The notes beneath the pieces are model-generated. The model ran no database searches. It saw only the letters and a list, made by a program, of their open reading frames with translations, and was not told the DNA's origin. From positions 85,542 to 149,541 of the forward strand of contig CAIJMI010000004.1 in the NCBI GenBank assembly GCA_903821745.1: 64,000 nucleotides of DNA. Reading direction: 5' to 3'. Source of the stretch: Candidatus Gottesmanbacteria bacterium. Lineage in GTDB: Bacteria > Patescibacteriota > Microgenomatia > UBA10105 > UBA927. Shown here in pieces: positions 7,871 to 34,693 of this stretch; position 1 is the stretch's first letter; each line of letters begins with the position of its first letter. The translations under genes were made by a program, and so were the position numbers.

Positions 7871-7964
7871 TTTAGTGTCGTTGTTAAACTTCTTAGTTCT
7901 TCCTGTGTAATGTACTACAGTTTTCCAGACAAAACAATCTAGTGTTTGTTTTATTAAATTAGTA

Positions 7965-9409: not shown

Positions 9410-9589
9410 TTTTCCACTTATCCACATAATGGTGATTTTTATCCACAGAGTTGTCCACGCGGTTTTTGCTGTTCTTGTTGATTTTTCTCTATGGGGTTTA
9501 GGTGATAAAAACAGCGCGTTGACAGATGAAGTAAAAAATCATACACTTTTCCACGCTTATTACTATTAACTACTACTAATAGAACCATT
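9410..9589 (+). promoter_or_regulatory. oriC-like region: DnaA box cluster (TTTTCCACT 9410, TTATCCACA 9418-9426, TTATCCACA 9439-9447, TTGTCCACG 9451-9459, TTTTCCACG 9547) plus AT-rich putative unwinding element (9557-9585)
   Basis: Two perfect consensus DnaA boxes and several 1-2 mismatch boxes in the dnaA-dnaN intergenic spacer, followed by an AT-rich tract immediately before dnaN. Confidence 0.6.
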
Positions 9590-10696
9590 ATGAAAGTTTC
9601 GCTATTACAAACACACTTAATGACAGCTCTTACAAAAACAACGCGCGTTATTTCTTCTAAATCACAATTGCCAATCCTACAAAACATCCTTATGGAAACC
9701 AGAGAAGAGCTTTTGTATATTGTGGGAACAAATACAGAAACAACGGTCGTAACCAAAACAAATGCAAAGATTGAAAAATCCGGCGGAGTCTGTGTACCAG
9801 CAAAACTGTTTATGGAGTTTGTTTCGACACTCCCCGAAGCACAAGTGGATTGTGTGTATAAAGACGGCTCACTTCTTGTAAATTGTGGAGGGTATGAGGC
9901 CACAATCCCATGTGTTGCTAAAGAAGAGTTTCCTCCAATTCCAGAAACCAAAAAAGGAAAAGAAATATCGATTCCCAAAGCGACGCTTTTGTCTTCGCTT
10001 GAAAGCGTTTTGTTTTCTGCCGCAACAGACGAAGGGAGACCGGTGCTAACCGGAATTAAGATTAAAAAAACGAACGAGGGCGTATTAATGGTTGCAACAG
10101 ACGGCTACAGGCTTTCTCTAAAAAGGGTTGCTGTGTCTCTGGGAGAGGAAACAGATGTAATTATTCCCGCCCGGGCGCTTTTTGAAGTGGTTCGAGTTGG
10201 TCAGGAAGAAAAAAAAGACGACGCGGTGTTGTTTAAAAAGATCGACGAATCACAGCTCGGTTTTTTTATTGGCAATACAGAGGTATACACACGAATCATT
10301 GATGGAGAATATCCAAATTTTGAAAAAATTCTTCCAAAGAATCACACGACAAAAGCGGTAATTCATAAGGGAGTTTTTGAGAAAGCAACAAAATCAGTAG
10401 CTCTTTTTGCTCGGGACAACGCAAACATTATTAAAATACACATAGAGGAAGGAAAGTTGGCGATATCAGCAAACACACCACAGGTTGGACAAAACACCGT
10501 AGAAATTGAAACAGAAACCGAAGGGGAGGGAGGAGAAATTGCTTTTAATAGCCGGTTTGTTCTCGATTTTTTAAGCCATTTTAATGAAGAAAAAGTAACG
10601 TTCGAGATGACCGGTTCGTTAAACCCAGGAGTATTTAAATCAATAAAAGACGAAGACTTTCTTCATATTATCATGCCCGTTAGAACTGCGACTTAG
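9590..10696 (+). CDS. dnaN: DNA polymerase III beta sliding clamp
   Basis: 368 aa, three-domain clamp pattern, N-terminus MKVSLLQTHLMTAL...LPILQNILME typical of DnaN; synteny with dnaA. Confidence 0.9.
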   Translation: MKVSLLQTHLMTALTKTTRVISSKSQLPILQNILMETREELLYIVGTNTETTVVTKTNAKIEKSGGVCVPAKLFMEFVSTLPEAQVDCVYKDGSLLVNCGGYEATIPCVAKEEFPPIPETKKGKEISIPKATLLSSLESVLFSAATDEGRPVLTGIKIKKTNEGVLMVATDGYRLSLKRVAVSLGEETDVIIPARALFEVVRVGQEEKKDDAVLFKKIDESQLGFFIGNTEVYTRIIDGEYPNFEKILPKNHTTKAVIHKGVFEKATKSVALFARDNANIIKIHIEEGKLAISANTPQVGQNTVEIETETEGEGGEIAFNSRFVLDFLSHFNEEKVTFEMTGSLNPGVFKSIKDEDFLHIIMPVRTAT

Positions 10697-10699
10697 GTG

Positions 10700-11689
10700 T
10701 TACTCAATGGCGGATATGGCATAACGAACATCAATTACCCCGTCTGGCGTCGTTGCTAACCCATCAAAAAGAAAAAAAGGGACGAGCGTTTTTGTCGACG
10801 GAGATTGATAATACACAATAGACACCGCACTGAGGGCAACTGATTGAAACGAGGGTTGATCCCCCCAGAAAACATTACCAGACTTTCTGCCCGAAAAAAC
10901 AAGCACCCCCAAGTTGTTATTTAATCCCCCAAGAGCTTCTTCAACAGAAAGAATAGGCTTGTCGCCCGCGACTATAATATTAGGAGGGGTTGAATAGGAT
11001 AAAGAAACAACACCCCCAAGACTATCGACGATAATGGTTGAGAGAGAGGGTTCAAAGGTTTGGGAAACGAGCGGATAAGTTTTATTGACAACAGCAAAAA
11101 ATGAAAACCCCATTAATGGAAGTTGTGTTGGTTTATCAAGCTGAACACCATCGAATGGACCGGTGTTTTTGTTGTTAAGAACAAGTTGTAGGTTGTTAGG
11201 TAGAAGAAATATCGTTTTTATAGTACTCGCAATTTCCGGTGCCCCCACACCTAATCCTGTTAAAGGAGTTGACTCTTTTGATATAAAAGACCAGTCTTGA
11301 GATAAACCGTCTGTGTAAAAAGAAAGTGATTTAGAAGGAAGAGACCATATTGATTTAGAAGATGAACCAACGGATTTTTTTATTGGAGCGGACGAAAAGC
11401 CAAACGATTTTGCGATCAAAGAAAGCTCGCCGCTTTGATATTCAAAATTTTGAACATGATAAACGGGAAGGGTTGTAGGAAACACGGGGGGCGCGTTAAC
11501 AAAAGAAAAAGCCACGTTTACCGGTGCGTTTTCAACAAGTGTGATTGCTGGTGGGAAAGCTGCTGTTCGTGGAGAGGGGCTTGGTGTTATCTTTGTTGTT
11601 GTGAAGTCCTTTTGTTTCCATGAAATAACAATCCCTATGCCAAGGGCAAAAATTGCAAAAATAATAATTAAGAGACGACGATTTTTCAT
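10700..11689 (-). CDS. Bitopic membrane protein at VirB8/PrgL position of T4SS operon (hypothetical)
   Basis: Start set to MKNRRLLIII (ATGA overlap with upstream gene, GGAGGTGG SD); one N-terminal TM helix then Ser/Thr/Pro-rich extracytoplasmic domain; last gene of the virB4 operon. Confidence 0.35.
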   Translation of the reverse strand: MKNRRLLIIIFAIFALGIGIVISWKQKDFTTTKITPSPSPRTAAFPPAITLVENAPVNVAFSFVNAPPVFPTTLPVYHVQNFEYQSGELSLIAKSFGFSSAPIKKSVGSSSKSIWSLPSKSLSFYTDGLSQDWSFISKESTPLTGLGVGAPEIASTIKTIFLLPNNLQLVLNNKNTGPFDGVQLDKPTQLPLMGFSFFAVVNKTYPLVSQTFEPSLSTIIVDSLGGVVSLSYSTPPNIIVAGDKPILSVEEALGGLNNNLGVLVFSGRKSGNVFWGDQPSFQSVALSAVSIVYYQSPSTKTLVPFFLFDGLATTPDGVIDVRYAISAIE

Positions 11690-13899
11690 GTTCCACCTCC
11701 CACAGTTAAAGACGGACAAGAAGGACAACCAGACGTGCCATTAGAACAAGAGGGAATTGCCGTTGGAAGAATGGAATTAATGCTTCCGGGCCCCCGGTAT
11801 TCAAAGTGAAGATGTGGACCGCTCGAATTTCCTGTATGATCAACCTCACCAATAACTGTTGTTGGAGAGACATAGTCCCCTTTGTGTACAGTAATGGATA
11901 ATCTTGAAAGGTGGCCAAACATAAGAGAATAAGAGCTTCCCTGGATAATTATATAATTTCCATACCCACCGCCGCATGTGTTACCCCAATAACCCGTGTT
12001 GTCGGCGCAACCAGAAAACACCCCCGTGATGGTGCCGTCAATTGTGGCATACACATCTGTTCCGTTTGCGGCTCCAATATCAATGGCGTTTGCCCTTGCG
12101 TGGGATCCACCACAAGAGGTGTGCGGCCCCTGTGTGATTGTACCGCTTGTTGGCCAACGACAATCCTGTTTTGTTGTATCACACGCACTCATTGAACAAA
12201 GGGGATTGTTTGGTTCTGCAACACAATCAACAATAGGACCAGCTCCGAACCCCCCAAGACCCTGAATAAAAGCGTTGTCTTGTACTGTTTGTTGGAAAAC
12301 AGAAGATCCACCAAGGGAAAAAGGTAGTATGGGTATAACAAAAAGTAGTGTAATAACACCAACAACAACCGCAGAAAAAATAAAAATAGGGTCCTTTGTG
12401 ATGGGGCCGCTTTCATAGGAACCAGACATTAGTTTCCCAAGCCAATCAAGGGTAATAAAACCAAAAAGTTTTTTTGCTCCACTGACGATTCCTCCTATAA
12501 TTTTGTCTCCAATTAACGAACCGACCCACGCAATAAAGGGGTTTCCCGTAGCTCCTCCCGCTATAGTTCCAGCAATTTTTCCAACGGCTGTGCCCGCAGC
12601 TTTTTTAGCAACGGCTTTTCCTGCAAGCCTCACTCCTTTGTCGGCGACGTAAGAAAGTCCTTGTTGCGCGGCCAATCCTGCATAATACCCCCCAACGGAA
12701 GACCCCATTTGTGTGTTTCCAAGTTGGGCAAGTTGGAGATATATTTCAGAAACCTCAGGATGAAAGACGGTAACAAAAACATCTACAAAAAACGATTGTG
12801 CTTTGGTAAATACGGCGCTTTTCCCTGATGATTCAAACAAAGTGTTTCCCCTTTGAATAGCCTGTTGAATGGCCGGGGATTGGAGAGCGGGACCAACAAT
12901 GCGTTGAAGCAACCCATTGTTTGAAACCTCTTTGTTCCAAGATGCACCCAGAACGCGCGCCGCAACAGCCTCCTGCGCATCTTTTGGAAACAAAGAAAAA
13001 ACTCTATCTGCAATTGGGGCCAGTGCCTTTTCTATCGCCTCACCCTTTGAACTTATGGTGGTAAAAAAACTAGAATAATCAATGCCACCAGATTCTGTTG
13101 TTTGTAACGCGTCGGCAACCACAGAAAGTCTAACCGCTTTTGTTATCACCGCCTCAATAGGAGCATCTGTTGTGGTAATTTGTTGAACAAAAGCTTGTTT
13201 GAAAAAATGCGGATCCGTTGAGGTAAGGGCATTTTCTACAAAGTCATTGGGTAAATCACGAGGAGTTTCTTCCTGGATTTTTTGCACCCCACGACGTAGT
13301 TGTTCATCCTCAACCATCTTACGGACCACCTCATCTCGTTTTGGCGTAGAATCTGGAATGGATTGTTCAATAATTTGTTCAGGTGATGCAGTTGGACTGG
13401 ATTGTGCTGAGGAAGCAATATTTTCAGCCGTGTGCATAAATGCTTCTCTTGTCCGACCGGTATATGGTTTTACAAGGTTTTCAATAAATTTGCGATTGGA
13501 TGGGGTTGGTTTGTGGTTTATTGCGTCAATAACAGAGGGCCCCTCTTCAATCATTTGGACAAGTTGTTCCCCGCGTTTGATAAATGCTTCATTATTGATT
13601 TCTATCTCTGGGGTTTGTTCTTGAATGGGTGTGGCCACCTGGTCAGGAAGGGTAAGGATTTCATTTTCAAAATTGGCAAATGATTTTTGCAGCGCATCTT
13701 GAAGCGCCATCACATCTTTTTTTTTAATGGCCGTTACAATAGCTGTGCGCTCTCTTTGTATGGTCCCCCGTAGTGGTGGATAGGTTTCTGCTGTAAATAG
13801 AATGGCAAGCAACTCCTCTTCTGATTTATTGGTTATATCAACAGAAGCAAGAAAATTTTTTAATGTTGGCCCAGAATTTTGCGTTGGCATACGTCCCAA
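11686..13899 (-). CDS. T4SS-associated cell-wall hydrolase with C-terminal M23 (LytM) peptidase domain, PrgK/TraG-like
   Basis: C-terminal M23 signature GEVDHTGNSSGPHLHFEY; long N-terminal coiled-coil/Gly-rich region and one internal TM helix; directly downstream of virB4. Confidence 0.6.
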   Translation of the reverse strand: MGRMPTQNSGPTLKNFLASVDITNKSEEELLAILFTAETYPPLRGTIQRERTAIVTAIKKKDVMALQDALQKSFANFENEILTLPDQVATPIQEQTPEIEINNEAFIKRGEQLVQMIEEGPSVIDAINHKPTPSNRKFIENLVKPYTGRTREAFMHTAENIASSAQSSPTASPEQIIEQSIPDSTPKRDEVVRKMVEDEQLRRGVQKIQEETPRDLPNDFVENALTSTDPHFFKQAFVQQITTTDAPIEAVITKAVRLSVVADALQTTESGGIDYSSFFTTISSKGEAIEKALAPIADRVFSLFPKDAQEAVAARVLGASWNKEVSNNGLLQRIVGPALQSPAIQQAIQRGNTLFESSGKSAVFTKAQSFFVDVFVTVFHPEVSEIYLQLAQLGNTQMGSSVGGYYAGLAAQQGLSYVADKGVRLAGKAVAKKAAGTAVGKIAGTIAGGATGNPFIAWVGSLIGDKIIGGIVSGAKKLFGFITLDWLGKLMSGSYESGPITKDPIFIFSAVVVGVITLLFVIPILPFSLGGSSVFQQTVQDNAFIQGLGGFGAGPIVDCVAEPNNPLCSMSACDTTKQDCRWPTSGTITQGPHTSCGGSHARANAIDIGAANGTDVYATIDGTITGVFSGCADNTGYWGNTCGGGYGNYIIIQGSSYSLMFGHLSRLSITVHKGDYVSPTTVIGEVDHTGNSSGPHLHFEYRGPGSINSILPTAIPSCSNGTSGCPSCPSLTVGGGT

Positions 13900-13917
13900 G
13901 TATTATACAATCATTAC

Positions 13918-15789
13918 TTAAGATTGTTGAGGTTCCACAGTTTCAACAGTAAAAACCGGTCGGTTTGTGGGTAGTTGTTGTTTTTGAGGAGTCTGTTGAT
14001 TTTCTTCTGATTGTTTTGTTTCCGTCTCTTGCGGCTTTGTTGTTGCAAGGGCGTGTTCTTCTTTGCTTGCTATGATGCGGATTGCAGCATGTGCCGGCCC
14101 AGCAAACAACAATCCCTCACCAACATCCGAAGAGAGGAGTCGGTGTTTTTCCCCCTCAGAGAGATAAAATATTTCTGCAACCTTGTCGATTGCGGCGGTG
14201 GATTGTTTAAGAAGTATTTGCATGCTGCTGTTTTGGATAATCGTTTTCCCTAGATTCCCAGAAAGAAAATCTTCCACGTCTTGGGTAATAGTGGTAAGTC
14301 CGAGATAATATTTACGACTCCGTTTTGCAATAGAATTTAAAAATTGTGCAGAATCAGGATATTTCATGAGGTACCACGCCTCATCAACAACCAAGATTCT
14401 TCGCTTGATGGCTTTTCGAATTTTTGTCCAGATGAAATCAAGGATTAAATACATAGCAATTGGCCGAAGCTCATCTTCAAGATCGCGGATGGAAAAAACC
14501 GTAAGGGGATTGGTGATTTCCATATTGGATTGTTCATCAAAAATACCAACCAAACTTCCTTTAACAAATTTTTCAATCCGGTCTGCTAGCCCACGAGCAA
14601 TTGGGTCTTCCATTCCAGTGAGAGTCTTAAACAGGTCTTCCATTAGCGGCGGTTCATTGTTTTGTGTTGCAGGATCTGGAGTGATGCCCTTTTGTTTGTA
14701 AGTTAATACAAGTGCGCGATCAAGGATAGCATCCTCAGTGGATGTGAGTTTTCCCATGACGACTCGAAAAAATCCATGTAGTGATAATATTTTTTGATTT
14801 AAATCATTTTCTTCAGGACCCGCGTCTTTGAGAACAGAAAGATCAAAGGGATTAATTTTGGTTCTTCCACCAAATTCAAAACGGATATATTCTCCACCGA
14901 GGGTTTTGGTCAGCGCCTCATATTCGTTTTCAGGATCAATGATAATAACTTCAGTACCAAACATCATGCTTCGGATCACTTCGAGTTTGACCATGTAAGA
15001 TTTTCCAGAACCAGATTTTCCAAACACAACAGTATTTGCGTTTTCAAGTGTAAACCGATCAAAAATTACCAAACTTTCATTTCCCTCGTTAATGCCATAG
15101 AGAATTCCTTCGTTAGCGGTCAATTCTGACGTGGTAAACGGAAATGTTGTTGCAAGAGATGTTGTATCCATGTTTCTTGTGATCATGAGCCGATCTTGTC
15201 CCATAGGAAGCGTTGTTTTAAACCCTTCCTCCATCTGTAAAATTGCCTTTTTGGTCACAATCATGAGAGATGCAAGCGTTGCCTCGACCTGTTTTGTTGT
15301 TTTATCAAGTTCCTCTTTGGTTTTGGAAGGAATCGTGATATATAAACCAAACTGGAAAAAACGTTGTGCACCCTTTGCTAGTTCCTGTTGCAGAGAAAGT
15401 GCGTCTTCAAGTGCTACTTGAATGGATGGTTCAATGACACGGCCACGCTTTAGGTCAGATTGAATGGTTGCCTCCATTTCCCCGACTTTCCGTTTTAAAT
15501 TTTCCAAAATCTCTTCAGATTTGGAGGGATATACATACATCGAAACATCAAGGGTGTGATTAAAGGAAATCAGTGGTTCGAGCCAGTTTGCACTGACGTA
15601 GCGCGGATAGCCTGCCACAAACAGCGTGCGAACCAACTGATCACCAATGGTAAGAAAATCAAAATCAACCTCAATTGCTGGAGGTGCAATAATATCCTTG
15701 ACGGTTAATGGTCCTGTTGGTGCATGCCCCTTGAGGGGGTTTGGCGGCTGCATGGTGACAAATGTTTTGATGACGTTTTTTATATCCAT
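13918..15789 (-). CDS. virB4: Type IV secretion ATPase VirB4/TraE/PrgJ family
   Basis: Walker A VVFGKSGSGKSY, Walker B ILVVDEAWYLM, and overall VirB4/CagE C-terminal domain pattern. Confidence 0.85.
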   Translation of the reverse strand: MDIKNVIKTFVTMQPPNPLKGHAPTGPLTVKDIIAPPAIEVDFDFLTIGDQLVRTLFVAGYPRYVSANWLEPLISFNHTLDVSMYVYPSKSEEILENLKRKVGEMEATIQSDLKRGRVIEPSIQVALEDALSLQQELAKGAQRFFQFGLYITIPSKTKEELDKTTKQVEATLASLMIVTKKAILQMEEGFKTTLPMGQDRLMITRNMDTTSLATTFPFTTSELTANEGILYGINEGNESLVIFDRFTLENANTVVFGKSGSGKSYMVKLEVIRSMMFGTEVIIIDPENEYEALTKTLGGEYIRFEFGGRTKINPFDLSVLKDAGPEENDLNQKILSLHGFFRVVMGKLTSTEDAILDRALVLTYKQKGITPDPATQNNEPPLMEDLFKTLTGMEDPIARGLADRIEKFVKGSLVGIFDEQSNMEITNPLTVFSIRDLEDELRPIAMYLILDFIWTKIRKAIKRRILVVDEAWYLMKYPDSAQFLNSIAKRSRKYYLGLTTITQDVEDFLSGNLGKTIIQNSSMQILLKQSTAAIDKVAEIFYLSEGEKHRLLSSDVGEGLLFAGPAHAAIRIIASKEEHALATTKPQETETKQSEENQQTPQKQQLPTNRPVFTVETVEPQQS

Positions 15790-15792
15790 AGA

Positions 15793-16443
15793 TTATGTTG
15801 TTACTTTTGTTTGTAAGGATTGTGGCATAGCTACTCCTGGATTGTATAAAGAAAAAAAGAGTTGTATGAGTTGATCGTCTGTGAGTTGTTGCGCTTTAAG
15901 GCCAAGTTTTGAAAGAAGCCGTAATAAATGATCTCGCTTTGGTGTAAGCGCAATAAGTGCACGCTCCATAATGACGGATTTTGGATACGGCAAACCGCTT
16001 TTTTTGGTTGAAAACAGCACACCTGGAGAAACACCAAGCTCAAGATTGGAAAAGGGAATCACGATATAAAATTTTTTATCCAACACCTCTTTTTCTTTAA
16101 CTGTTGATTCAATAAAGGCTCGATACCCATGAATACTGGTCGCAAGCTTTGGATTGGTTTGTGCTTTTTCCTGCTCTTCTAAAAGATGAAGATATGCACT
16201 AATATCTTTGTGTTTTGAACGGACGATAATTTGAATGGGAAACGAGAGGGAATTTAAGATTCCTGCATATGCATAAATCATTGCCTCCTGTTCGTTTCCG
16301 GACAATAAACTGAAATTAACTGCAGCAACACTGATAATGAATGCGCAGGATCCATTGCCGAAAAGAACAAGGTTTTGACTGACGTCTTCAATCTCAGTAA
16401 ATTGTTGTGTTGAAGCTCGTATTGGAACAATAGGATCTGCCAT
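15793..16443 (-). CDS. Hypothetical protein (T4SS operon member)
   Basis: 216 aa ORF tightly packed between VirB3-like and VirB4 genes; no recognisable motif. Confidence 0.35.
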   Translation of the reverse strand: MADPIVPIRASTQQFTEIEDVSQNLVLFGNGSCAFIISVAAVNFSLLSGNEQEAMIYAYAGILNSLSFPIQIIVRSKHKDISAYLHLLEEQEKAQTNPKLATSIHGYRAFIESTVKEKEVLDKKFYIVIPFSNLELGVSPGVLFSTKKSGLPYPKSVIMERALIALTPKRDHLLRLLSKLGLKAQQLTDDQLIQLFFSLYNPGVAMPQSLQTKVTT

Positions 16444-16446
16444 ATG

Positions 16447-17700
16447 TTATGTGTTTGTTGTTTGTCCAAAAATTTGTTTTGCAAGCGTTTCTCGGTCAAT
16501 ATCCCGTTTGCTTTTTGCGCCAATTTCAATCGCAGGAACCACGGTTCCATTCAGTGTAACCTGTGCGCGGTCAAAGATATAGCGACCGCGGGGATCTTCA
16601 ACTTCAACAAAATACACCCCGTTGGGGAGTTGCGTTGATGCGGCAAACTGGCCAATTTTATTTGTTTTAAGTGCACGAAGGGGAATGCCCTCTTTGTCTC
16701 GTACCGTCACAAGAACGCCAGGAAGAAGTCCTCCTTGATTGTCCTTGATAATGCCGGTGACGACGTTTGCAAATGTGGTGAGCCTTGGTAACCCTGCACG
16801 AGCTGCTGCATCAGGCATAATAATTTTTACCGTTGGCCCCTGGGACTTTGGCGTGGTAGTAACGCTCGAAGGTTGCGATGGTTTGAGATGTGCCATTGGT
16901 TCGTTGGATTGTTTTTTCATAGTAACAAGCTGATGTTCCATTTCCTGTTTTTGTTTCATCATTTCCGTCATTTCTTGTTGTAGTTCAAGGACACGAGTTT
17001 CCGCTTGGGCCTTTTCGGTTAGTTCTGATTGTAACGATGCAATCTTATTTTGTAAGGCATCAAGTTCTGGATTTTTTTCTGGTTTCGGTTGTTGTACCAC
17101 TGCTGGTTGCGGTTGGGGAACCACAACGGGCTGAGGAGGTGCGGCGGGTTGTGGATTGGTGGACAAGATGGTGTGTGTTGGTTGTGGAAATAGTTTGTCA
17201 ACCCAAGAAAACAGTGAATCAAACAGCGATTTTTTTTGAACCGCGGGAGTTTGGGTATACAGGCCCTGAAGAGCTGCTGCAATCGGTGTAGCCGGTGACG
17301 TAGTGGGTGATGGCGTATTGACCGGTGTGGGCACGTTTGGTCGTTGAAGGGTGGGTGACGACTGTTTTTGTGCTACAGCAGGAGGCGGTGTTGTTTGCGG
17401 TTCTGGTTTTGGTTGAGTTCTGTGCCACACAAACTGCGTTGGAGTATAGACACTTTTTAAAAACGATAACACCCACACATCCATCGGCCGTTCCTCAATG
17501 GGAACAAATGCAAATCCAATACCAAGTAGCGCAAACAAAACCGTAAGTGGCCAGGTAAAAAAGAACGGCAAAGGAAGAATATACGAAAGGTACGCTAAAA
17601 TTGCTCCGCCCGCGAGGTACCCAAACTGTTTAATCGTCATATCGCCGATTAAACGGAATTGAAACGTTGTGACATTTTGCGGGACAGGATGTTGTTCCAT
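16447..17700 (-). CDS. VirB3/PrgI-like membrane protein with Pro/Gln-rich linker, coiled coil and C-terminal beta-sandwich (carboxypeptidase-regulatory-like) domain
   Basis: N-terminal two-TM region (LAGGAILAYLSYILPLPFFFTWPLTVLFALLGIGFAF) immediately upstream of virB4 as VirB3/PrgI is in Gram-positive T4SS; low-complexity PTPV/PQP linker; C-terminal GVLVTVRD...GVYFVEVE motif. Confidence 0.4.
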   Translation of the reverse strand: MEQHPVPQNVTTFQFRLIGDMTIKQFGYLAGGAILAYLSYILPLPFFFTWPLTVLFALLGIGFAFVPIEERPMDVWVLSFLKSVYTPTQFVWHRTQPKPEPQTTPPPAVAQKQSSPTLQRPNVPTPVNTPSPTTSPATPIAAALQGLYTQTPAVQKKSLFDSLFSWVDKLFPQPTHTILSTNPQPAAPPQPVVVPQPQPAVVQQPKPEKNPELDALQNKIASLQSELTEKAQAETRVLELQQEMTEMMKQKQEMEHQLVTMKKQSNEPMAHLKPSQPSSVTTTPKSQGPTVKIIMPDAAARAGLPRLTTFANVVTGIIKDNQGGLLPGVLVTVRDKEGIPLRALKTNKIGQFAASTQLPNGVYFVEVEDPRGRYIFDRAQVTLNGTVVPAIEIGAKSKRDIDRETLAKQIFGQTTNT

Positions 17701-17830
17701 AAGGACCTAAAATCTATTGTAAAGAAGAACAGATATTCTCGCAAGAGGAAAAGCGCGTTAGAACCGTGAAAACTTTAATTTTCATTTCACGAAAGAAGTG
17801 AAAAAGTTTTTCTTGTGATATGATTACCTC

Positions 17831-20011: not shown

Positions 20012-20033
20012 GTAATCCTCTATACTTAGCCAC

Positions 20034-20588
20034 ATGAAGATCGGACTTTTCGGAGGAAAGTTTAATCCACCCCACATTGGGCATATTTTTATTGCCGAGC
20101 AGTGTTTGGACTTTGGCGGATTTGATGAAGTGTGGTTTATGCCAAACTATGGACAGAGCTTCCATGAGCCGGTGGCGCCGGTTGCAGATCGGCTTGCAAT
20201 GACAAAATGTATGTCTCTATCCCGGACAAAAATTTCAACTATTGAAATAGACAACAAACTGGATGGACAAACCATTCATTTATTACCATTTTTGCCAAAA
20301 GAACATGAATATACATTTATTATTGGATCCGATCAGTTGGCAACATTTCATCTATGGGGAAGTTACAAGGAATTATTGCGCCAGCTTCCCTTTATGGTTT
20401 TTCCTCGGTATGGATATCCGAATGAACCAATGTATGAACATATGCGCGTTCTTTCCCATCCTTCATTAATTGCTGCTAATTTGTCCTCAACAAAAATTCG
20501 GGACCGGGTAAAATTAGGACTTTCTATTGAGAATTTTGTTCCAAAAGGGGTAGCCACATACATTAAGGATCATAAGTTATATCTATGA
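20034..20588 (+). CDS. nadD: Nicotinate-nucleotide adenylyltransferase
   Basis: N-terminal GGKFNPPHIGH (H/T)xGH nucleotidyltransferase motif. Confidence 0.85.
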   Translation: MKIGLFGGKFNPPHIGHIFIAEQCLDFGGFDEVWFMPNYGQSFHEPVAPVADRLAMTKCMSLSRTKISTIEIDNKLDGQTIHLLPFLPKEHEYTFIIGSDQLATFHLWGSYKELLRQLPFMVFPRYGYPNEPMYEHMRVLSHPSLIAANLSSTKIRDRVKLGLSIENFVPKGVATYIKDHKLYL

Positions 20589-21370
20589 AACAAATAGATG
20601 CAGAACAAGAAACAGGAAAGATTATTGCCTTTATTAAACAATCATTTCAAAGCGCAGGATTTTCAGATGTAGTAATTGGACTTTCTGGTGGTGTTGACTC
20701 GACAGTTTCTTGTATCCTTGCGACTCGTGCATTAGGGTTAGAACACGTGTATCCGATTCTTTTGCCCTATGGACCATTAAATACAAGAGGTGTCTTGGAT
20801 GCCATGGAGCTGATTGAAAAACTCAAGCTTCCCATGAGTCATGTCGTACGGATTGATATGCAACCTGCGGTTGATGCAATTGTTCGGATTGATCCGTTTA
20901 TGAACCGCATCAGAAAAGGCAATATAATGGCACGTGTTCGTATGACGTACCTGTTTGATCAGGCAAAAAAAAGAAATGCACTAGTAATGGGCACAGAAAA
21001 TAAAAGTGAACATCTGTTGGGATATTTTACGCGATTTGGTGATGAAGCCAGCGATGTAGAGCCAATATTACATATGTATAAAACGCAAGTATTTGTATTG
21101 GCAAAATATCTTGAAGTGCCGCAAACTATTTTGAATAAAGCTCCATCTGCAGATTTATGGCCCGAGCAAACAGACGAGGGGGAATTAGGATTTACCTATG
21201 AAGAAGCAGATGAAGTATTGTATTTAGCAAATGACGAACATAAATCCAAGGCAGAAATTATCAAGAGTGGTTTGGGTGAAATCCAAGTTAATGCGATTTT
21301 TCAGCGTATTGATAAAAATAAATTCAAGATCTTAACGGATCATGGGATAAAATTTTTTGGTATGTCGTGA
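20585..21370 (+). CDS. nadE: NH3-dependent NAD+ synthetase
   Basis: PP-loop SGGVDS motif; overlaps nadD stop (ATGA). Confidence 0.85.
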   Translation: MKQIDAEQETGKIIAFIKQSFQSAGFSDVVIGLSGGVDSTVSCILATRALGLEHVYPILLPYGPLNTRGVLDAMELIEKLKLPMSHVVRIDMQPAVDAIVRIDPFMNRIRKGNIMARVRMTYLFDQAKKRNALVMGTENKSEHLLGYFTRFGDEASDVEPILHMYKTQVFVLAKYLEVPQTILNKAPSADLWPEQTDEGELGFTYEEADEVLYLANDEHKSKAEIIKSGLGEIQVNAIFQRIDKNKFKILTDHGIKFFGMS

Positions 21371-21430
21371 TGGCATCACAGATAAATCCCATGCTATAAT
21401 CTAAATAGCGTAATATTTATTTATATATTT

Positions 21431-24400
21431 ATGGGAACAGAATCAAAAGAGGGTTTAGGAAAAGCAATCGAAGCAACCGTTCAGGTGGTTAAAGCTGCTG
21501 TTGGAATAGAGGGAAACGATCAGTCGCAAACCACCATTGCCGCGGTGAGAAAAATAGAAAAAGAAAAAGCTGAAGCAAGAAAAATTACAGAAGGACTTGA
21601 AACCAATCCATCAAAAACCGAAGCAGAGCTCCAGAAAAAACCAAAAGAACACGTTTCTATTAAAGAGGCGAATGTTCTTTTAGAAAAAGCAACGAGTGCC
21701 CCGCAGGCAAAAAATGTTACATGGTTAATCAGTGAGGTTGGAGATGTGCACCATAATCCAGATGCAATTGCTTTTGTTGCAAGAATTGCAGAAGCGCCAA
21801 CACAGCTGCAAGACGATCCACATTACCTGCTTGCAGAAGGAGCAAAACTTTTTTGGTCAACACCATGGGGTGAACTTTCATCTGAGGCGCACAGGGAAAC
21901 AAGGGCAATATTAAAAAGTGTGTTTAATCGTGTTGAACAACTGCGAGAAAATAATCCAGATTTTACCATTGACCCCGACGTTGTGCGTGAAGGTTTACTT
22001 CCAGAGGCAAGGATGGGACAAAGACAACGGCAACAGAGAAATGGACCACACGTAATGGCGACAGCTGATAATTGGCTAAAAGATTTTGATATTCCTAAAA
22101 ATGAAAGAGGAGAGGTAATTCCGATAAGTGCTGATACGGCAAGAGTAGTTGCTCGGTTCCAAGAATTAGGAAGCAAACAAAATCCTAGAGAAATATCAGA
22201 AGCATGGACGGAAATAGAAGAACTACGAAGATCACAGGCGCATTTAATATCTCCAGATGAAGAGGCATATCTTGAAAGAGTGAAAAAACGTATTTATGAA
22301 ACATTTTGTACGATGAATGGTGACAGATTGCAATTTAGTCCAAATGAATTAAATCAAATTATAAGGGGTCCAAACGCAGCAAGTTTGCGTGATAAATTGT
22401 TTTATGACCGTATTAAAAAGATCCTGTTAAATCCAAACGAAGAGACGCATAAACAAATTAATCTTTATGATCAAGTGGATATGGACATTCTGATGTCCGC
22501 ATACTCTCAAGCTGTCGAAGTTGATCCTCGTACGGGAGTAGAAAGGAAAATCGGTTCCAGTGTTCAGGCACATTATCAGAATCTTTATGACACAATATTA
22601 CGTTTATCAGATACGGAATTTTGGGCAAGGCATCCCGCTGGCGATGTAGAGAATTTACAAAAAACCCTTGGTTATTTTGAAAATAAATTTGCTGTTGAAG
22701 CAATGTCAGATCCTCTTGTTGAGGATATGACGCAATGTATGGAATTGGCCATAAAATTTGTTCGCGATGCAAACGACGGCACCATTCCAGGTGAGCTTTC
22801 ACGATATAATCCAAGAACACAAAGGACATATATTGATGATTTAACATTACAATTTTTTAATCAACGAATGAGAAGTGGTGCAGTAAGAGACTATGTGAGA
22901 AATCCTCAAACTGGTATTCCTGAAGTGGACCCAAAAAATAACGGGAGAACTTTTCTTCGTTCAGACAACGCATTTCATTTTGATACTTTAGTTGAAGAGG
23001 AAAAAGAACTTCGATTATTAGCAACCCTTCGTTTAGCAAAAGGCGTTGGTATTATTACAAATAGAACCATAGAGCTTTACGCTTTCACGCGTACTCCAGG
23101 GGTGGGTCCAAAAGCTGAATCAGGATCTAGATCTGGTTTTTCTAGCAAGGCTTATGGAGGATTAACTCGGTGGACAAATCCGCTTTCCGAATGGTTTGAA
23201 ATGTATGGTTTTGGTGATACATTACATGTTCCTTTTTTCAATGCGCTTCTTGGTGCCGATGGAAAACCGTTTAATTGGAACATGGATCAATTTAAGGAAG
23301 TTATTGATTTAGTCATGGGTGGTGCAAGCGAAAAACAACTTCAAGCAAAGTTCGGACCAAACGCTGGACGAATAATGGATATGGTAAACGACTTTAGCTT
23401 TTCAGGTAGGTTCGGTCCATTATCTATGTGGGGAACGAAAGATGCGACGCTTGATTGGACATTCAAAGAAAACGAACGGCTTGGTGGTTCCATGCGATTG
23501 TCTTTGGCTGGAGGTTGGGCAGAGGAAAAGGTTAAAGCGCGATTTGAGAAAGCTAATGCACATCAAGGATGGACAAAAAGGCAAATGGATGAAGAGTGGA
23601 CAAACGCACGGTTTGGCGAAGGACATTGGGGGGAAAATAATCAATGGAAGCGGGGTGTGGAATTAGAAACCAAGGCATACAAAACGCTGATTTGGTCTCA
23701 AAGCATTTTAAGAAATCCCTTAGGCGCTGCCGCATCCCAAAAAATTGAATACAGATCCTTAGATGGTAGAACACATCAAGGAAAATTAAAAAGCAAAATA
23801 TTACATGATATTTTTCTTCCTGAAGATTTAGCAGCATACGGTCTTACTGACTTGGTGGTGGAACGAGATGTTGCATCAATGCGGTCAATTAGCACGGATA
23901 AACGTTTATTGATGGAACGGATTTCAGTCGTTGATAGTGATTTAAGTTCTGTAATGCGATATGCAATGAATAGTGGAGAATTTCCGCGAGATATTGAATT
24001 GTCAGATTTTGAACGATGTATCGTTGGAGACATTATTATTGATGGGCCCAATGGAAAACTAACAATTACCGAAGAAACACGAAGAAGACAGGCAACGGAA
24101 TTTTGGAAAAAGACTCAACGAGAAATATTGGGGAAAGCAGTTGGAGATGGAGGTCGAGGTTTCGATGCATTAGAAATTAGACAAGAGCTTGGAATTCAGG
24201 GGAACGATGCGGTTCTTAAGCCCAGTGAGATAATCTTTTCTAATATCAACAATTTGGAATCCATTATTGAGAATGCCGCATCATCTAATGCCGCTATGCC
24301 ATTAAAGGAAATGCTTCAGCAACGAATTCAGGTTCATCTTGGCACTGAGGATACTCAATGGAGATATTTAGATTTAGACACGCTTGGAGATCGTCATTGG

Positions 24401-24952
24401 GGGCGTCGTGGAGGAGATAATTTAACTCGGGCAAAAACAGTAAAACTAATGATGGACTATTTTCATAAGCTTGTGGGAAAACCAAAAATGGAAGATTTGG
24501 TAAAAGCTATTGCCGAAATTGGACAATCAGAAAAAGGACATGATCCCAAGGAGGCAGCTAAATTTGCATATATATGGGCAACAGCAACAGCGGACATTTA
24601 TAGACAAAGAAATCTTGCGGAAATTCCGTTTATTGGAAGAATTTTACCAAAACTGGGTATTCCTATGTCCATAGCGCAGGAAAAAATGGGTGTAAATAGC
24701 GCAGATTTTTGGAGTGCCAATAATATGGTGAAATTTGCAGATTTACTTGGGGGGACAAGAGTTATACCAGGACAAAGAATCATAGACGGAAAAGACTTCG
24801 GTCCATATAATATGAAGAAATTTAGAAAAGACATAGGAGCCAGCCGTATCGCAGCGGCGCTTGAAATTTTGATTATTGGTGGTTCATTGGCCGCTGTTAC
24901 ATCCATGTTAGCAGGTGCAACAAAATCCATGGAAGACGAAAAGAAGAAATAA
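21431..24952 (+). CDS. Giant (1173 aa) tail-anchored hypothetical protein within T4SS locus
   Basis: No signal peptide, no recognisable catalytic motif, single C-terminal TM helix (IAAALEILIIGGSLAAVTSMLAG) followed by KKK; sits between nadE and virB6-like gene. Confidence 0.5.
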   Translation: MGTESKEGLGKAIEATVQVVKAAVGIEGNDQSQTTIAAVRKIEKEKAEARKITEGLETNPSKTEAELQKKPKEHVSIKEANVLLEKATSAPQAKNVTWLISEVGDVHHNPDAIAFVARIAEAPTQLQDDPHYLLAEGAKLFWSTPWGELSSEAHRETRAILKSVFNRVEQLRENNPDFTIDPDVVREGLLPEARMGQRQRQQRNGPHVMATADNWLKDFDIPKNERGEVIPISADTARVVARFQELGSKQNPREISEAWTEIEELRRSQAHLISPDEEAYLERVKKRIYETFCTMNGDRLQFSPNELNQIIRGPNAASLRDKLFYDRIKKILLNPNEETHKQINLYDQVDMDILMSAYSQAVEVDPRTGVERKIGSSVQAHYQNLYDTILRLSDTEFWARHPAGDVENLQKTLGYFENKFAVEAMSDPLVEDMTQCMELAIKFVRDANDGTIPGELSRYNPRTQRTYIDDLTLQFFNQRMRSGAVRDYVRNPQTGIPEVDPKNNGRTFLRSDNAFHFDTLVEEEKELRLLATLRLAKGVGIITNRTIELYAFTRTPGVGPKAESGSRSGFSSKAYGGLTRWTNPLSEWFEMYGFGDTLHVPFFNALLGADGKPFNWNMDQFKEVIDLVMGGASEKQLQAKFGPNAGRIMDMVNDFSFSGRFGPLSMWGTKDATLDWTFKENERLGGSMRLSLAGGWAEEKVKARFEKANAHQGWTKRQMDEEWTNARFGEGHWGENNQWKRGVELETKAYKTLIWSQSILRNPLGAAASQKIEYRSLDGRTHQGKLKSKILHDIFLPEDLAAYGLTDLVVERDVASMRSISTDKRLLMERISVVDSDLSSVMRYAMNSGEFPRDIELSDFERCIVGDIIIDGPNGKLTITEETRRRQATEFWKKTQREILGKAVGDGGRGFDALEIRQELGIQGNDAVLKPSEIIFSNINNLESIIENAASSNAAMPLKEMLQQRIQVHLGTEDTQWRYLDLDTLGDRHWGRRGGDNLTRAKTVKLMMDYFHKLVGKPKMEDLVKAIAEIGQSEKGHDPKEAAKFAYIWATATADIYRQRNLAEIPFIGRILPKLGIPMSIAQEKMGVNSADFWSANNMVKFADLLGGTRVIPGQRIIDGKDFGPYNMKKFRKDIGASRIAAALEILIIGGSLAAVTSMLAGATKSMEDEKKK

Positions 24953-24963
24953 TAACCAATAGC

Positions 24964-26343
24964 TTAGGCTGAAGGAGGTTTGGGTTTTGTCTTCAGATTC
25001 TGCAGAATTGATTGTCCATAATAGAAACCAGATACCGCTTGTGTCCCCGTTTGGAATGCTCCAGTAATTGGGCTTAATGCAGCTCCTGCACCCATCGGAA
25101 CCATTGGTTTTGCTTTAAGTGATTCTTGGATTCCTTTGACGATATTTGGAATGATAAAAAGCATACCAAGACCAATAAGCCCTCCAACACCTCCACTACC
25201 GGTTCCCAACATTGGAGGAGTCCAGGTTTTTGTAGATGTACCAATTAAATACCAGCTTACAGTTATGCAAATGGCAGTGATTGGAAAAACGATGAGATGA
25301 GAAATAAGATTTTTTATCCACGAAGCAAACCCATTTCCTCCTGGAACAGCATCGAGCAGTAATTGAATAGGAGCGGTAATAAGACTGATAATGATTTGTA
25401 TGTATGCGTTTAAAAGCATGAAAAAGAGGCGAACTCCACCAAAGAGAAAAGCAAGAGATAAAAGAACAAAGATTAATACTCCCACTACATCATAGACTGG
25501 ATTAAAAAGAGCAAAATAACCAAGTTGTGATTGGCCAGGAAAGAGAAAAGCCATGAGGTCGGGTAATGAGTTAAATCCTGCAAGAAGACCTCGGTTGACA
25601 GCGGAAAAACTACTACTGGAGATGCGCGTAATATGTCCAGCATCAAACATTCCTGTGGGACTTGCATTAACAATAAGTTGAACCCCAAGAATAAGGACAA
25701 CATACATAAGATCAATTAAAATTCCAACAATCGCATAGGAGAAGGTAATAAGAATAAGGGTGATGACGATTTTTGGGAGCGCATTTTGGACTGTTACAAC
25801 AGTTTTTGGATCAATCTTTTTTCGAAACATCACCATAAATCCAATGACAACCATGATGATTGCAAGAAGCGCGTAGCTAATATTTCGGAACGCTTTCCAA
25901 ATGGGAAGGAGTGTTACAAGTCCAGAAAAACCTATGCCTTGCGCATATGCTTTTTTGGGCATAAACCCAAGGGTTTGTCCCATATCTTGCACAAAGGCAT
26001 ATGTTGATGCGGGCGGATTTGCATACATGGTATAGATATAGTTAGATAATCCAGCCATGGCACTTTGTTGCCGCATCGCCTCTGCATAGGGAGTATTCAT
26101 ATCCGCAGCAGATACTGTCAGCCCAGGAACAGGTCCTAAGACACGCCTCACAAAATCTGAGTAGTTATTAGTGTTTACATTTGATACATGAGCAGCAGCG
26201 TTAACATCAGATTGTTTTGCAGCTGCGCTCATGCTTTCTGCATAACCCGCGTCCACCCAACTGGTCTCTTGTGCGTGCACACGAAGAGGCAGTAAGAAAA
26301 GGGTAAAGAGAAAGAAAATCACGTAATACAAGGACCGTTTCAT
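24964..26343 (-). CDS. VirB6/TrbL-like polytopic T4SS membrane protein
   Basis: Signal peptide (…LPLRVHAQE) then >=6 TM helices over 459 aa; immediately upstream of pilin-like gene array. Confidence 0.5.
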   Translation of the reverse strand: MKRSLYYVIFFLFTLFLLPLRVHAQETSWVDAGYAESMSAAAKQSDVNAAAHVSNVNTNNYSDFVRRVLGPVPGLTVSAADMNTPYAEAMRQQSAMAGLSNYIYTMYANPPASTYAFVQDMGQTLGFMPKKAYAQGIGFSGLVTLLPIWKAFRNISYALLAIIMVVIGFMVMFRKKIDPKTVVTVQNALPKIVITLILITFSYAIVGILIDLMYVVLILGVQLIVNASPTGMFDAGHITRISSSSFSAVNRGLLAGFNSLPDLMAFLFPGQSQLGYFALFNPVYDVVGVLIFVLLSLAFLFGGVRLFFMLLNAYIQIIISLITAPIQLLLDAVPGGNGFASWIKNLISHLIVFPITAICITVSWYLIGTSTKTWTPPMLGTGSGGVGGLIGLGMLFIIPNIVKGIQESLKAKPMVPMGAGAALSPITGAFQTGTQAVSGFYYGQSILQNLKTKPKPPSA

Positions 26344-26381
26344 ATTGGTATTATCTGTTACTTTGCAACAAGCGTCAAGAT

Positions 26382-26756
26382 TTATTGCGTTTTATAAATT
26401 TGAAATATCGTCAAGTTTTGAATGCCGGTAACTTTTTGAATAATAAGAAGAATAAGATAGCTACCAACGAGAAGTGCAAGGCCGATAATCGCATTGGAAA
26501 TGGTCCCTTTGGCTTTTTCTAGTTTTTTTTGGTCACCGCCGGAAAAGAGGAAGGTAAATCCTCCAATGACCAGCATGACAAATAAGACAACGCCAGCAAA
26601 TGCAGTAACAGCACGTATCACATTGCCAAATACCGAAACTAGCGATGAAATGGTTGCAACATCCGCTGGTCCATTAGGCCCAGCCTTTTCCAGGCCAACC
26701 CAATTAGAAGTTGCTTGCGCAAGGGTGTTCATGATGTTAAGTATACCAGATATCAA
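26382..26756 (-). CDS. VirB2/TrbC-like T4SS pilin family protein (paralog 1)
   Basis: Two hydrophobic helices separated by conserved GG(F)TFLFSGGD..K motif; ~100-135 aa; member of 6-gene tandem array. Confidence 0.5.
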   Translation of the reverse strand: MISGILNIMNTLAQATSNWVGLEKAGPNGPADVATISSLVSVFGNVIRAVTAFAGVVLFVMLVIGGFTFLFSGGDQKKLEKAKGTISNAIIGLALLVGSYLILLIIQKVTGIQNLTIFQIYKTQ

Positions 26757-26803
26757 AAATCCCCCAAAGGGGGATTTTTGAATATACTCTTATTTTTAAC
26801 AAA

Positions 26804-27136
26804 TTAATACGGTTTTGGAAGGTTAATTCCTTGAGAACCGATGATGTTGACGCCTAAGAAACTCTGCACCAACATCATAATTGCCCACGCCGCTCCGACG
26901 ATAATAAGTCCAACGATTGCATGAGTAATTTTATTTCGTGCTGCTTCCATGGCTGCTTTGTCTCCACCTGAGGTAATCCATTGAAGACCACCCAAAATCA
27001 AGAACAAAAATGCCATGAGTGCGGCCAAAATAAGGAGTGTTCCGACAACTGCACTTATTAGTTGTCCAACATCGGTAATGCGGATACCCGTTGGTTGTGC
27101 AACAGTAAGATCAGCTGCAAATAGTTTTTCTAACAT
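26804..27136 (-). CDS. VirB2/TrbC-like T4SS pilin family protein (paralog 2)
   Basis: LILGGLQWITSGGDKAAMEAARNKITHAIVGLIIV motif; strong SD (AGGAGGTGA) upstream. Confidence 0.5.
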   Translation of the reverse strand: MLEKLFAADLTVAQPTGIRITDVGQLISAVVGTLLILAALMAFLFLILGGLQWITSGGDKAAMEAARNKITHAIVGLIIVGAAWAIMMLVQSFLGVNIIGSQGINLPKPY

Positions 27137-27222
27137 ACGTCACCTCCTTAAATTACTTTACAATTAGTACAAAATAGGAACAATGCTTATTTTATTATAC
27201 GGTACTCACTGTAAATCAGCAA

Positions 27223-27570
27223 TCAACCACCAAACGATGGAATTTTGAGTGCTTTGATGTCGATACCCAAAAATTGTCCAATCAGCGTGAATATCGCATA
27301 TGCTGCTGCAACAATAATCAGTCCAATCATTGCATTCGTTATTTTATTTCGTGCCTGTTCCAGTTGTGCTTTGTCTCCGCCAGACGTGAGCCATTGAATG
27401 CCGCCAAGGAGAAGATACATAAATGTGAGAAAGAATGCAAAAATAAAAAGAAGCCCTGCAATGTTACTGACTAATTTTCCAATGACGGTTCCTCCTTGTT
27501 CAGTTGTTCCAGACCCCAAAAGTGGTGGGAGAACGGGATTCGTAATTTGTGCAAGTATTTGTTGTCCCAT
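27223..27570 (-). CDS. VirB2/TrbC-like T4SS pilin family protein (paralog 3)
   Basis: LLLGGIQWLTSGGDKAQLEQARNKITNAMIGLIIV motif. Confidence 0.5.
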   Translation of the reverse strand: MGQQILAQITNPVLPPLLGSGTTEQGGTVIGKLVSNIAGLLFIFAFFLTFMYLLLGGIQWLTSGGDKAQLEQARNKITNAMIGLIIVAAAYAIFTLIGQFLGIDIKALKIPSFGG

Positions 27571-27572
27571 GA

Positions 27573-27980
27573 TTATTTAAAAATAATACTATTTATATTC
27601 GGTGATAAAATATTTGTCCATCCAAAGAATTGGCCTGCAAGCGCAACAATAGCCCATCCTACAACAACAATGACCAATCCGATGAATGCATTGGATATTT
27701 TATCACGTGCTTCCGTGAGTTTTGCTTTATCTCCTCCAGCAGTGATCCAACTAATACCGCCAAGTAAAACTTGGATGAAAAACCATATAGCTGCAACAAC
27801 AGTTAAAAGACCAATAATGGCAGAGATCGCTCCGGTAAATTTCGTCATGACGTTACCAGCATTAAAACTTCCGGTTCCAAAAGGACCAAGACCAGATCCG
27901 CCAATGCGATCGGTTGTGAGTGGTACGGCCTGCTGTGCGAGAAGTCTATCCATATTAAGGTGTGACGGCTGATGGGCCAT
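27573..27980 (-). CDS. VirB2/TrbC-like T4SS pilin family protein (paralog 4)
   Basis: VLLGGISWITAGGDKAKLTEARDKISNAFIGLVIV motif; real start may be internal Met (MDRLLAQ) removing overlap with next gene. Confidence 0.5.
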   Translation of the reverse strand: MAHQPSHLNMDRLLAQQAVPLTTDRIGGSGLGPFGTGSFNAGNVMTKFTGAISAIIGLLTVVAAIWFFIQVLLGGISWITAGGDKAKLTEARDKISNAFIGLVIVVVGWAIVALAGQFFGWTNILSPNINSIIFK

Positions 27981-28335
27981 AAATAACTGGTTTTAATATA
28001 AACATTGCATCTCCAAATAATATGTATCCAAATAAGGCAGCAAGAACGAACGATCCCGCAATAATGGCAAGTCCAAGGAGTGTTTGCCAAATTCTTCCCC
28101 AGGCTTTGGTGAGTGCTTTTGAGTCGCCACCAGCGCTCATATATTCAAAACCAGCAATAATTAAATTGATGAATGCGTAAATCCCGGCAACCACAAAGAC
28201 AAGACGAAGGAGATTGGATAAAAATACGACTAAACCACCACCTCTGACGTCGGCATACGGAAGGGGATTTGAAATTTTTCCGATAATGTCAGTTGCTGAC
28301 GTGTCTGCTAGAGCAAAAATGCGTTCGATAAACAT
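27955..28335 (-). CDS. VirB2/TrbC-like T4SS pilin family protein (paralog 5)
   Basis: LIIAGFEYMSAGGDSKALTKAWGRIWQTLLGLAII motif. Confidence 0.45.
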   Translation of the reverse strand: MFIERIFALADTSATDIIGKISNPLPYADVRGGGLVVFLSNLLRLVFVVAGIYAFINLIIAGFEYMSAGGDSKALTKAWGRIWQTLLGLAIIAGSFVLAALFGYILFGDAMFILKPVIYGPSAVTP

Positions 28336-28336
28336 A

Positions 28337-28651
28337 TTATTTTGGTAAAATGGTTACTCCGGTAATTATTTCAATAATCTGTATGATCCAGTAGGAAGCA
28401 AAAATAAGAACAAGCCCAATTGCTGCTGATGTCAGTGCTTGTTTACTCTGTTCTGCTTTTTTTGCATCCCCGCTACCTGCTGATACTATAAAGCTAAAAC
28501 CTCCAAAAATCAATAAAACTAAGAAAATAACGCCTGCGATAACGAAGGCGTTTTTAAGGATAACATTAACAAAAGACCCGATGGTAGGAAATGATTTGGC
28601 GGGAGCAAATACTTGTCCAATATTAACTGTTGGAATTGGTTCCATATTCAA
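28337..28651 (-). CDS. VirB2/TrbC-like T4SS pilin family protein (paralog 6)
   Basis: LIFGGFSFIVSAGSGDAKKAEQSKQALTSAAIGLVLI motif. Confidence 0.45.
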   Translation of the reverse strand: MNMEPIPTVNIGQVFAPAKSFPTIGSFVNVILKNAFVIAGVIFLVLLIFGGFSFIVSAGSGDAKKAEQSKQALTSAAIGLVLIFASYWIIQIIEIITGVTILPK

Positions 28652-31259: not shown

Positions 31260-31266
31260 TACAGAT

Positions 31267-33449: not shown

Positions 33450-33453
33450 AAAT

Positions 33454-34688: not shown

Positions 34689-34693
34689 GAAAT

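Follow-up and report, generated by a model that had tools for sequence, protein, structure and literature searches.

What kind of secretion machine stands beside the replication origin of a Candidatus Gottesmanbacteria chromosome, and does it move DNA between cells? The question is raised by a stretch of 64,000 nucleotides (nt) from contig CAIJMI010000004.1 (assembly GCA_903821745.1, positions 85,542 to 149,541), here called the window, in which the genes of a type IV secretion system (T4SS) lie next to dnaA and dnaN (Table 1). The locus is very probably a vertically inherited, non-conjugative T4SS of the Patescibacteria clade, derived from the MPF_FATA class. What is demonstrated is which parts the system has, its affinity to the conjugation machines of monoderms, the absence of relaxase and integrase genes from the locus and its constant origin-side position across Microgenomates. 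The system is already published (Wang et al., 2023, PMC10633639; Quinonero-Coronel et al., 2025, PMC12102498), and an initial annotation of the window, made from the letters alone, is an accurate independent rediscovery of it. Rather than a novel type of system, the window offers a Gottesmanbacteria copy of it that is clean and complete. What is added here is modest and at the level of annotation: a divergent VirB6 candidate, a YycI/PepSY-like fold in the VirB8 slot, and an adjacent, syntenic VirD4-like gene. Patescibacteria T4SSs are a key to understanding how ultrasmall epibionts make use of their hosts, and these three leads sharpen the parts list for structural and genetic work.

Table 1. 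Features of the origin-side T4SS locus and its neighbours. Positions are those of the window; TM, transmembrane; aa, amino acids; median identities are relative to the window's own proteins.
Feature	Positions	Strand	Evidence or context	Median identity (%)
DnaA boxes, one perfect (7993-8001) and one with a single mismatch	7993-8011	.	upstream of dnaA	
dnaA	8032-9399	+	Pfam Bac_DnaA, E 9e-65	65
Two perfect DnaA boxes (9418-9426, 9439-9447)	9418-9447	+	dnaA-dnaN spacer	
dnaN	9590-10696	+	Pfam	47
Bitopic protein, 329 aa, last operon gene	10700-11689	-	single N-terminal TM segment	25
Cell-wall hydrolase (M23), VirB1/PrgK analogue, 737 aa	11686-13899	-	Peptidase_M23, E 3.7e-19	25
VirB4 ATPase, MPF_FATA (CD1110) type	13918-15789	-	NF045971, PDB 4ag5	72.6
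TrsD/TraC-like, 216 aa	15793-16443	-	NCBIfam VirB4_plasma, TrsD; precomputed PF26593 TraC-like	58
PrgI/VirB3-like	16447-17700	-	Pfam PrgI, 35.1 bits vs cut-off 27	
VirD4/TraD-like P-loop ATPase, 726 aa	17831-20011	+	TrwB_AAD_bind, 28.4 vs cut-off 20.5	68
nadD and nadE, NAD salvage, not T4SS parts	20034-21370	+	Pfam; syntenic in relatives	
Orphan, 1173 aa	21431-24952	+	family scan without match	
VirB6-like polytopic protein, 459 aa	24964-26343	-	TM prediction and fold	33
Six VirB2-like pilin genes in tandem	26382-28651	-	PF18895 T4SS_pilin; each a two-TM hairpin	
ECF-type (extracytoplasmic function) sigma factor (sigma-70)	28704-29255	+	Pfam scan	
Two further VirB2-like pilin genes	37288-38182	-	Pfam scan; outside the coordinates of the initial annotation	

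The core of the system is a minus-strand operon (10700-17700). Its order of a PrgI/VirB3-like protein, a 216-aa protein, VirB4, an M23 hydrolase and a bitopic protein had been proposed in the initial annotation and is confirmed by the positions of the open reading frames (ORFs) and by profile matches; the Gram-positive (MPF_FATA-like) type claimed there is borne out by family matches to VirB4 CD1110, PrgI and TrsD. Intergenic spacings are 3, 3 and about 18 nt, and the bitopic gene overlaps the M23 gene by 4 nt. The operon boundaries are drawn from this spacing alone, because a promoter scan of the locus stayed at chance level (43 sites vs 47 expected). The VirD4-like, VirB6-like and pilin genes that had been placed on either side of the core do exist, but all of them lie on one side of it, and the locus as first delimited is interrupted by nadD, nadE and the 1173-aa orphan.

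The assignment of 13918-15789 to the VirB4 family, likewise made in the initial annotation, holds. The protein reaches 395 bits against NF045971 ('VirB4-like, CD1110 family'; cut-off 325), in an alignment confined to profile positions 185-730, and matches the VirB4 of PDB 4ag5 at E 1.4e-44 and TrwK/VirB4 at E 2.5e-7. The usual N-terminal domain is lacking. The 216-aa protein encoded just upstream matches positions 109-234 of VirB4_plasma (E 1.2e-7) and TrsD (E 2e-3) in NCBIfam, and a local Pfam scan gave no match for it. By these profile matches it would be homologous to the VirB4 N-terminal domain but encoded as a separate protein, and together with VirB4 it looks like a split VirB4; TrsD has been described likewise as a separate VirB4 N-domain (PMC12102498). 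An entry identical to VirB4 is present in the database. The top matches of VirB4 are all from Candidatus Gottesmanbacteria/Microgenomates (74-94% identity), with more than 8,000 homologues at E 1e-10, and this best-hit evidence suggests membership of the Patescibacteria clade. Together with the loci of relatives described below, these matches place the window in the class Microgenomatia of the CPR (candidate phyla radiation)/Patescibacteria. Among the remaining operon products, the PrgI/VirB3-like protein has a TM hairpin that a coiled, Pro-rich linker joins to a CarboxypepD_reg-like beta-sandwich at the C-terminus. The hydrolase has an N-terminal region of about 500 aa, one TM segment at about residues 507-525 and a C-terminal M23 (LytM) domain.

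Proximity to oriC is confirmed by dnaA and dnaN, by DnaA boxes and by a switch in GC skew. The 64-kb window contains three perfect DnaA boxes, all of them flanking dnaA. At about 8-10 kb the GC skew, negative before, becomes positive, with the cumulative minimum near the dnaA-dnaN spacer, which is likely the oriC core. The T4SS operon converges on dnaN, the two stop codons being 3 bp apart (10694-10702) with no terminator between them. A species-level genome scan gave 80 loci of relatives (Gottesman-, Curtiss-, Woese-, Shapiro-, Ames-, Chisholm- and Beckwithbacteria), and the synteny counts and median identities are those across 83 fetched loci, a sample skewed to close relatives of the query. 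PrgI-like, TrsD-like and VirB4 proteins are encoded together in 80 of the 83 loci, and the PrgI-like and TrsD-like genes each adjoin virB4 in 80-81. Of the 58 relatives whose flanks are long enough, 48 have dnaN downstream of virB4 at a distance of no more than 9 kb, and wherever dnaN lies downstream it is convergent (57/57). VirB4 is better conserved than DnaA (Table 1), which, with the fixed place, argues for an ancestral chromosomal locus under strong selection and not for an integrated conjugative element (ICE).

Mobility genes are missing from the locus. Pfam scans of all window ORFs of at least 100 aa (64 kb) gave no relaxase family and no integrase at the locus borders, as the initial annotation had noted by eye. 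Its further claim of a fixed chromosomal rather than mobile machine is upheld by the comparison of locus position across about 80 Microgenomates species, in which synteny is conserved. The GC content of the locus (0.39-0.44) is that of the right flank, with no compositional step.

These properties are those of a known group. In 3,035 Patescibacteria genomes, VirB4 proteins form a monophyletic clade nested in MPF_FATA, with lineages that are class-congruent and rarely exchanged; TrsD, PrgI/VirB3 and VirB2-like pilin arrays are reported and abundant in Microgenomatia, relaxases occur in only 103 of the genomes, and dnaA/dnaN are enriched near virB4 in Microgenomatia and Paceibacteria (PMC12102498). 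Transposon sequencing in the Saccharibacterium S. epibionticum showed that T4SS genes SEML1_0006-0019 and the pilins are essential, in a locus without recognisable coupling or relaxase proteins (PMC10633639). In the same organism the pilin array is essential and comEC dispensable, and the Patescibacteria T4SS is the only one reported essential for growth of its bearer (PMC12857230). That the window locus, too, may be essential, as the initial annotation suggested, is supported by its conservation and by the transposon sequencing in another class of bacteria (PMC10633639). Its function has been termed "completely unknown" (PMC11665869), and effector export or import has been speculated on (PMC11665869, PMC12857230). 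Our literature search found no 2025-2026 paper that settles it.

The window locus shares with the published Patescibacteria systems an MPF_FATA-affine VirB4, PrgI/VirB3, a TrsD-like protein, a VirB2-like pilin array, a peptidase gene downstream of virB4, the lack of a relaxase and a chromosomal place near dnaA/dnaN. It differs in its adjacent VirD4-like gene, t4cp having been found near virB4 in 148 of 5,713 published cases (PMC12102498). PrgI adjoins virB4 in 80 of the 83 loci of our sample, which is biased to close relatives, whereas the published value for Microgenomatia is 22.6% (PMC12102498). VirB6 and VirB8 are published as scarce in Microgenomatia (PMC12102498), whereas a fold-level VirB6 candidate occurs here.

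With monoderm MPF_FATA systems (pCF10 prgH-L, pGO1/pSK41 trsC-D-E-G, CTn2 CD1110) the window locus has in common the order VirB3-like, (TrsD), VirB4, hydrolase, bitopic protein, a VirB4 above the CD1110 cut-off, and the lack of outer-membrane core parts. Unlike them, it is without a relaxase or a recognisable oriT and off any mobile element, its hydrolase is M23-only, without SLT or CHAP, its bitopic protein is not NTF2/VirB8-like in predicted fold, and it possesses VirB2-type pilins, which Gram-positive systems lack (PMC12857230). Two-TM VirB2-type pilins, VirB3-, VirB4- and VirD4-type parts and the VirB6/TrwI-like predicted fold of the 459-aa protein are shared with diderm VirB/Trw systems (R388, Agrobacterium). 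VirB5, B7, B9, B10 and B11 are absent from the window, the VirB4 match to TrwK is the weak one given above, and the 459-aa protein has no sequence similarity to TrwI.

In the 459-aa protein, a signal peptide and some 130 aa of ectodomain are combined with about seven TM segments, and the protein belongs to a large family (3,266 representatives of 50% clusters). An AlphaFold2 (AF2) model built from 69 sequences has a mean predicted local distance difference test (pLDDT) of 85.9. The top four PDB fold matches of this model are all R388 TrwI/VirB6 chains (probability 1.00). A fifth chain from a TrwI/TrwJ entry, 7o3v_I, is weaker (E 0.72, probability 0.80), and the remaining listed matches have probabilities of at most 0.18. 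Chain 7o3v_F and the identical sequence in 8rt9 and 8rtd were confirmed as TrwI/VirB6 through the R388 reference record (NC_028464). Pfam TrbL gives weak matches in 2 of 23 family members (E 0.013 or weaker). The predicted fold and topology make the protein a likely, highly divergent VirB6 of the system.

The 329-aa bitopic protein evolves fast. A single-sequence search returned three homologues and a profile search four, low-complexity words having apparently swamped the candidate list; a hidden Markov model built from positional orthologues finds the family in the loci of 33 relatives, including Curtiss-, Shapiro- and Chisholmbacteria. Its AF2 model (5-sequence alignment; pLDDT 74.9, predicted TM-score 0.67) contains three alpha+beta units, and the only significant Foldseek matches in PDB are to YycI (E 3e-5). 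The ectodomain is thus predicted to consist of tandem YycI/YycH/PepSY-like alpha+beta domains, with sequence searches silent and no similarity to the YycI, YycH or PepSY families found by them. The protein had been taken in the initial annotation for a PrgL/VirB8 analogue; this identity (PrgL, TraM, TcpC type) is rejected, as neither the fold search with the predicted structure of 10700-11689 nor sequence searches gave a VirB8/NTF2 relative.

Domains of the PepSY and YycH types regulate peptidases and a membrane kinase. The 329-aa gene is translationally coupled to the M23 gene, and its product may control the M23 hydrolase. With YycI/YycH (the WalK regulators of B. subtilis) and PepSY proteins (YpeB, M4/M36 propeptides) it shares bitopic topology. 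It differs from them in being encoded in a T4SS operon and not in a two-component system, and the likeness comes from a 5-sequence model without sequence similarity. In other Microgenomates the same slot, between the M23/TM gene and dnaN, holds a bitopic protein of 135-230 aa that is unrelated in sequence to the 329-aa family (loci L009, L013, L014, L018, L020, L024, L038, L043, L046 and others) and matches PrgL/VirB8-like proteins in size.

The VirD4-like gene is transcribed divergently from the core operon. In addition to TrwB_AAD_bind (Table 1), its product scores 21.7 against TraG-D_C (cut-off 22), its N-terminal domain is DUF8128, and its best NCBIfam names are VirD4-like CD1115, TraD and CedD, each well under the cut-off. 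The gene adjoins the operon in conserved synteny in 33-36 Gottesmanbacteria-type loci. nadD and nadE follow it directly, after a gap of 22 nt and then with an overlap, and the same layout is found in other Gottesmanbacteria loci, for example L002. The 1173-aa orphan that comes next lacks a signal peptide and has one TM anchor, at its C-terminus. It evolves very fast, with 30% identity in locus L011 and no detectable counterpart in most relatives, and could be a T4SS-associated surface protein or substrate.

In the pilin array, five of the six proteins score above the PF18895 cut-off of 26.6 bits and the sixth scores 22.1; they are divergent (21-33% identity to the first). The additional pair lies 9 kb from the array and adjoins a SpoIID-like gene (38230-40014), which brings the total to eight pilin genes. 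In the second protein of the pair, which may be a tip or adhesin pilin, the hairpin is preceded by a signal peptide and by about 70 aa of Cys-rich insert. A diversified set of eight pilins fits host-surface recognition. The perfect palindrome TCCCCCAAAGGGGG (26760-26774), with T-runs on both strands, stands between the fifth and sixth array genes in the order of transcription. Placed shortly before the last pilin gene and the VirB6-like gene, it resembles a terminator or attenuator that works in both directions. The ECF sigma gene is divergent from the array over a 52-bp spacer and is a candidate regulator of it.

Several observations weigh against the assignment of this locus to a vertically inherited, non-conjugative T4SS of the Patescibacteria clade. 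The VirD4-like protein is far under the family cut-off of NF045973 (42 vs 250 bits), has no TM anchor and resembles TrwB (PDB) in the Walker A region only, and its VirD4 membership by way of solved structures was dropped for this last reason. The TrwI fold scores of the 459-aa protein are modest (E 7e-3 to 1.6e-2; template modelling score 0.26-0.46, target-normalised 0.38-0.46), and a sequence signal is missing: a profile search against PDB came back empty and hhalign against R388 TrwI was non-significant. No VirB8-like part was found by fold or by sequence. The experimental evidence comes from outside Microgenomates, and the relaxase scan spans 64 kb of genome, so that a relaxase may be encoded elsewhere. 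The core operon and the VirB6-like and pilin genes (24964-28651) are on the lagging-strand side, where forks from oriC meet them head-on, an orientation that the operon has in all relatives and that sits badly with a simple argument of placement at the origin for high expression, such as the published suggestion that origin proximity raises expression (PMC12102498).

A mechanism can be proposed from model T4SSs. The PrgI/VirB3 protein would anchor the two-piece VirB4 (TrsD-like N-domain and ATPase) at the membrane as an inner-membrane motor, and the VirB6-like protein would serve as a channel through the membrane or as the base of the pilus. The M23 peptidase, anchored in the membrane, would open the peptidoglycan, possibly under the control of the co-translated YycI/PepSY-fold bitopic protein. 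VirB4 would pull VirB2-like pilins out of the membrane and build from them, by polymerisation, a pilus or conduit extending to the host cell, and the VirD4-like ATPase would feed substrates. We tentatively favour, at somewhat less than even confidence, a machine that exports proteins to the host cell or signals to it by contact. This is preferred over import or adhesion only, mainly because a conserved coupling-type ATPase is retained.

That the locus is an ICE or its decayed remnant, still or until recently moving DNA between cells, is scarcely credible. The PrgI-TrsD-VirB4-hydrolase order does mirror monoderm conjugative operons, a VirD4-like ATPase is present, and other parts of the window contain tRNA genes and an rve_3 transposase, but there is no relaxase in the 64 kb, no border integrase and no compositional step, in about 80 species the locus is found at this position and convergent with dnaN, its VirB4 is more conserved than DnaA, and published VirB4 lineages are class-congruent and rarely exchanged (PMC12102498). 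This reading was rejected as largely refuted by the missing relaxase and border integrase, the fixed synteny and the conservation of VirB4. Another reading is an import machine like H. pylori ComB or archaeal Ced, whose pilus or channel would bring in DNA, nucleotides or cofactor precursors from the host to feed a biosynthesis-reduced cell. It has been raised as a hypothesis (PMC11665869, PMC12857230) and would suit a window of 64 kb without a relaxase, nadD/nadE embedded in the cluster, a ComFC-like gene in the window and weak similarity of both ATPases to CedB and CedD; yet it seems unlikely on balance. The similarity to CedB amounts to 53 bits (cut-off 700) and that to CedD to 28-30 (cut-off 600). 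ComB-type importers are not known to have a VirD4 homologue, whereas the VirD4-like gene here is present and syntenic. Genes purA, purB and guaB in the window indicate that purine interconversion is present. comF (43571-44263), which the initial annotation had held compatible with DNA uptake, loses its value as evidence, being unlinked, 15 kb off beside smpB and the tmRNA gene, and S. epibionticum needs its T4SS but not comEC (PMC12857230).

Pilus assembly only, with VirB4 building VirB2-type fibres for host attachment and no translocation, would agree with the essential pilin array of S. epibionticum (PMC12857230). It would agree as well with the divergence among the eight pilin paralogues, of which one carries an adhesin-like, Cys-rich insert, and with the lack of identified cargo genes. 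Coupling-type ATPases are not known to be required for pilus biogenesis in model systems, yet the VirD4-like ATPase is kept beside the operon (median identity 68%), and a role in adhesion only is therefore improbable. It is a long shot, finally, that the origin-side T4SS of Microgenomates was rebuilt with lineage-specific parts and runs as an uptake conduit for host nucleotides or cofactor precursors through the VirB2 pilus. Such parts may be the soluble DUF8128 VirD4-like ATPase co-transcribed with nadD/nadE, the YycI/PepSY-fold protein replacing VirB8 and gating M23, and the highly divergent VirB6. If true, this would explain why the T4SS is retained as tightly as replication genes.

Other genes of the window are listed here for completeness. 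A mevalonate operon (30117-37285) lies between the two pilin loci and encodes HMG-CoA reductase, an HMG-CoA synthase-like protein, thiolase, two GHMP kinases and diphosphomevalonate decarboxylase, and an undecaprenyl-diphosphate synthase gene comes after these. The sole mobile-element gene of the window is that of an insertion sequence-type transposase (HTH_8 and rve_3; 61162-62292), 33 kb away and unrelated to the T4SS, beside tRNA-Asn (62354-62426). Across oriC, to the left of dnaA, positions 1-8000 form a low-GC block (0.33 vs 0.41 elsewhere) with genes for glycosyltransferases, an O-antigen-ligase-like protein, a rhamnose epimerase and a methyltransferase. The relative L002 has other genes in this region, which thus appears to be a variable surface-glycan island.

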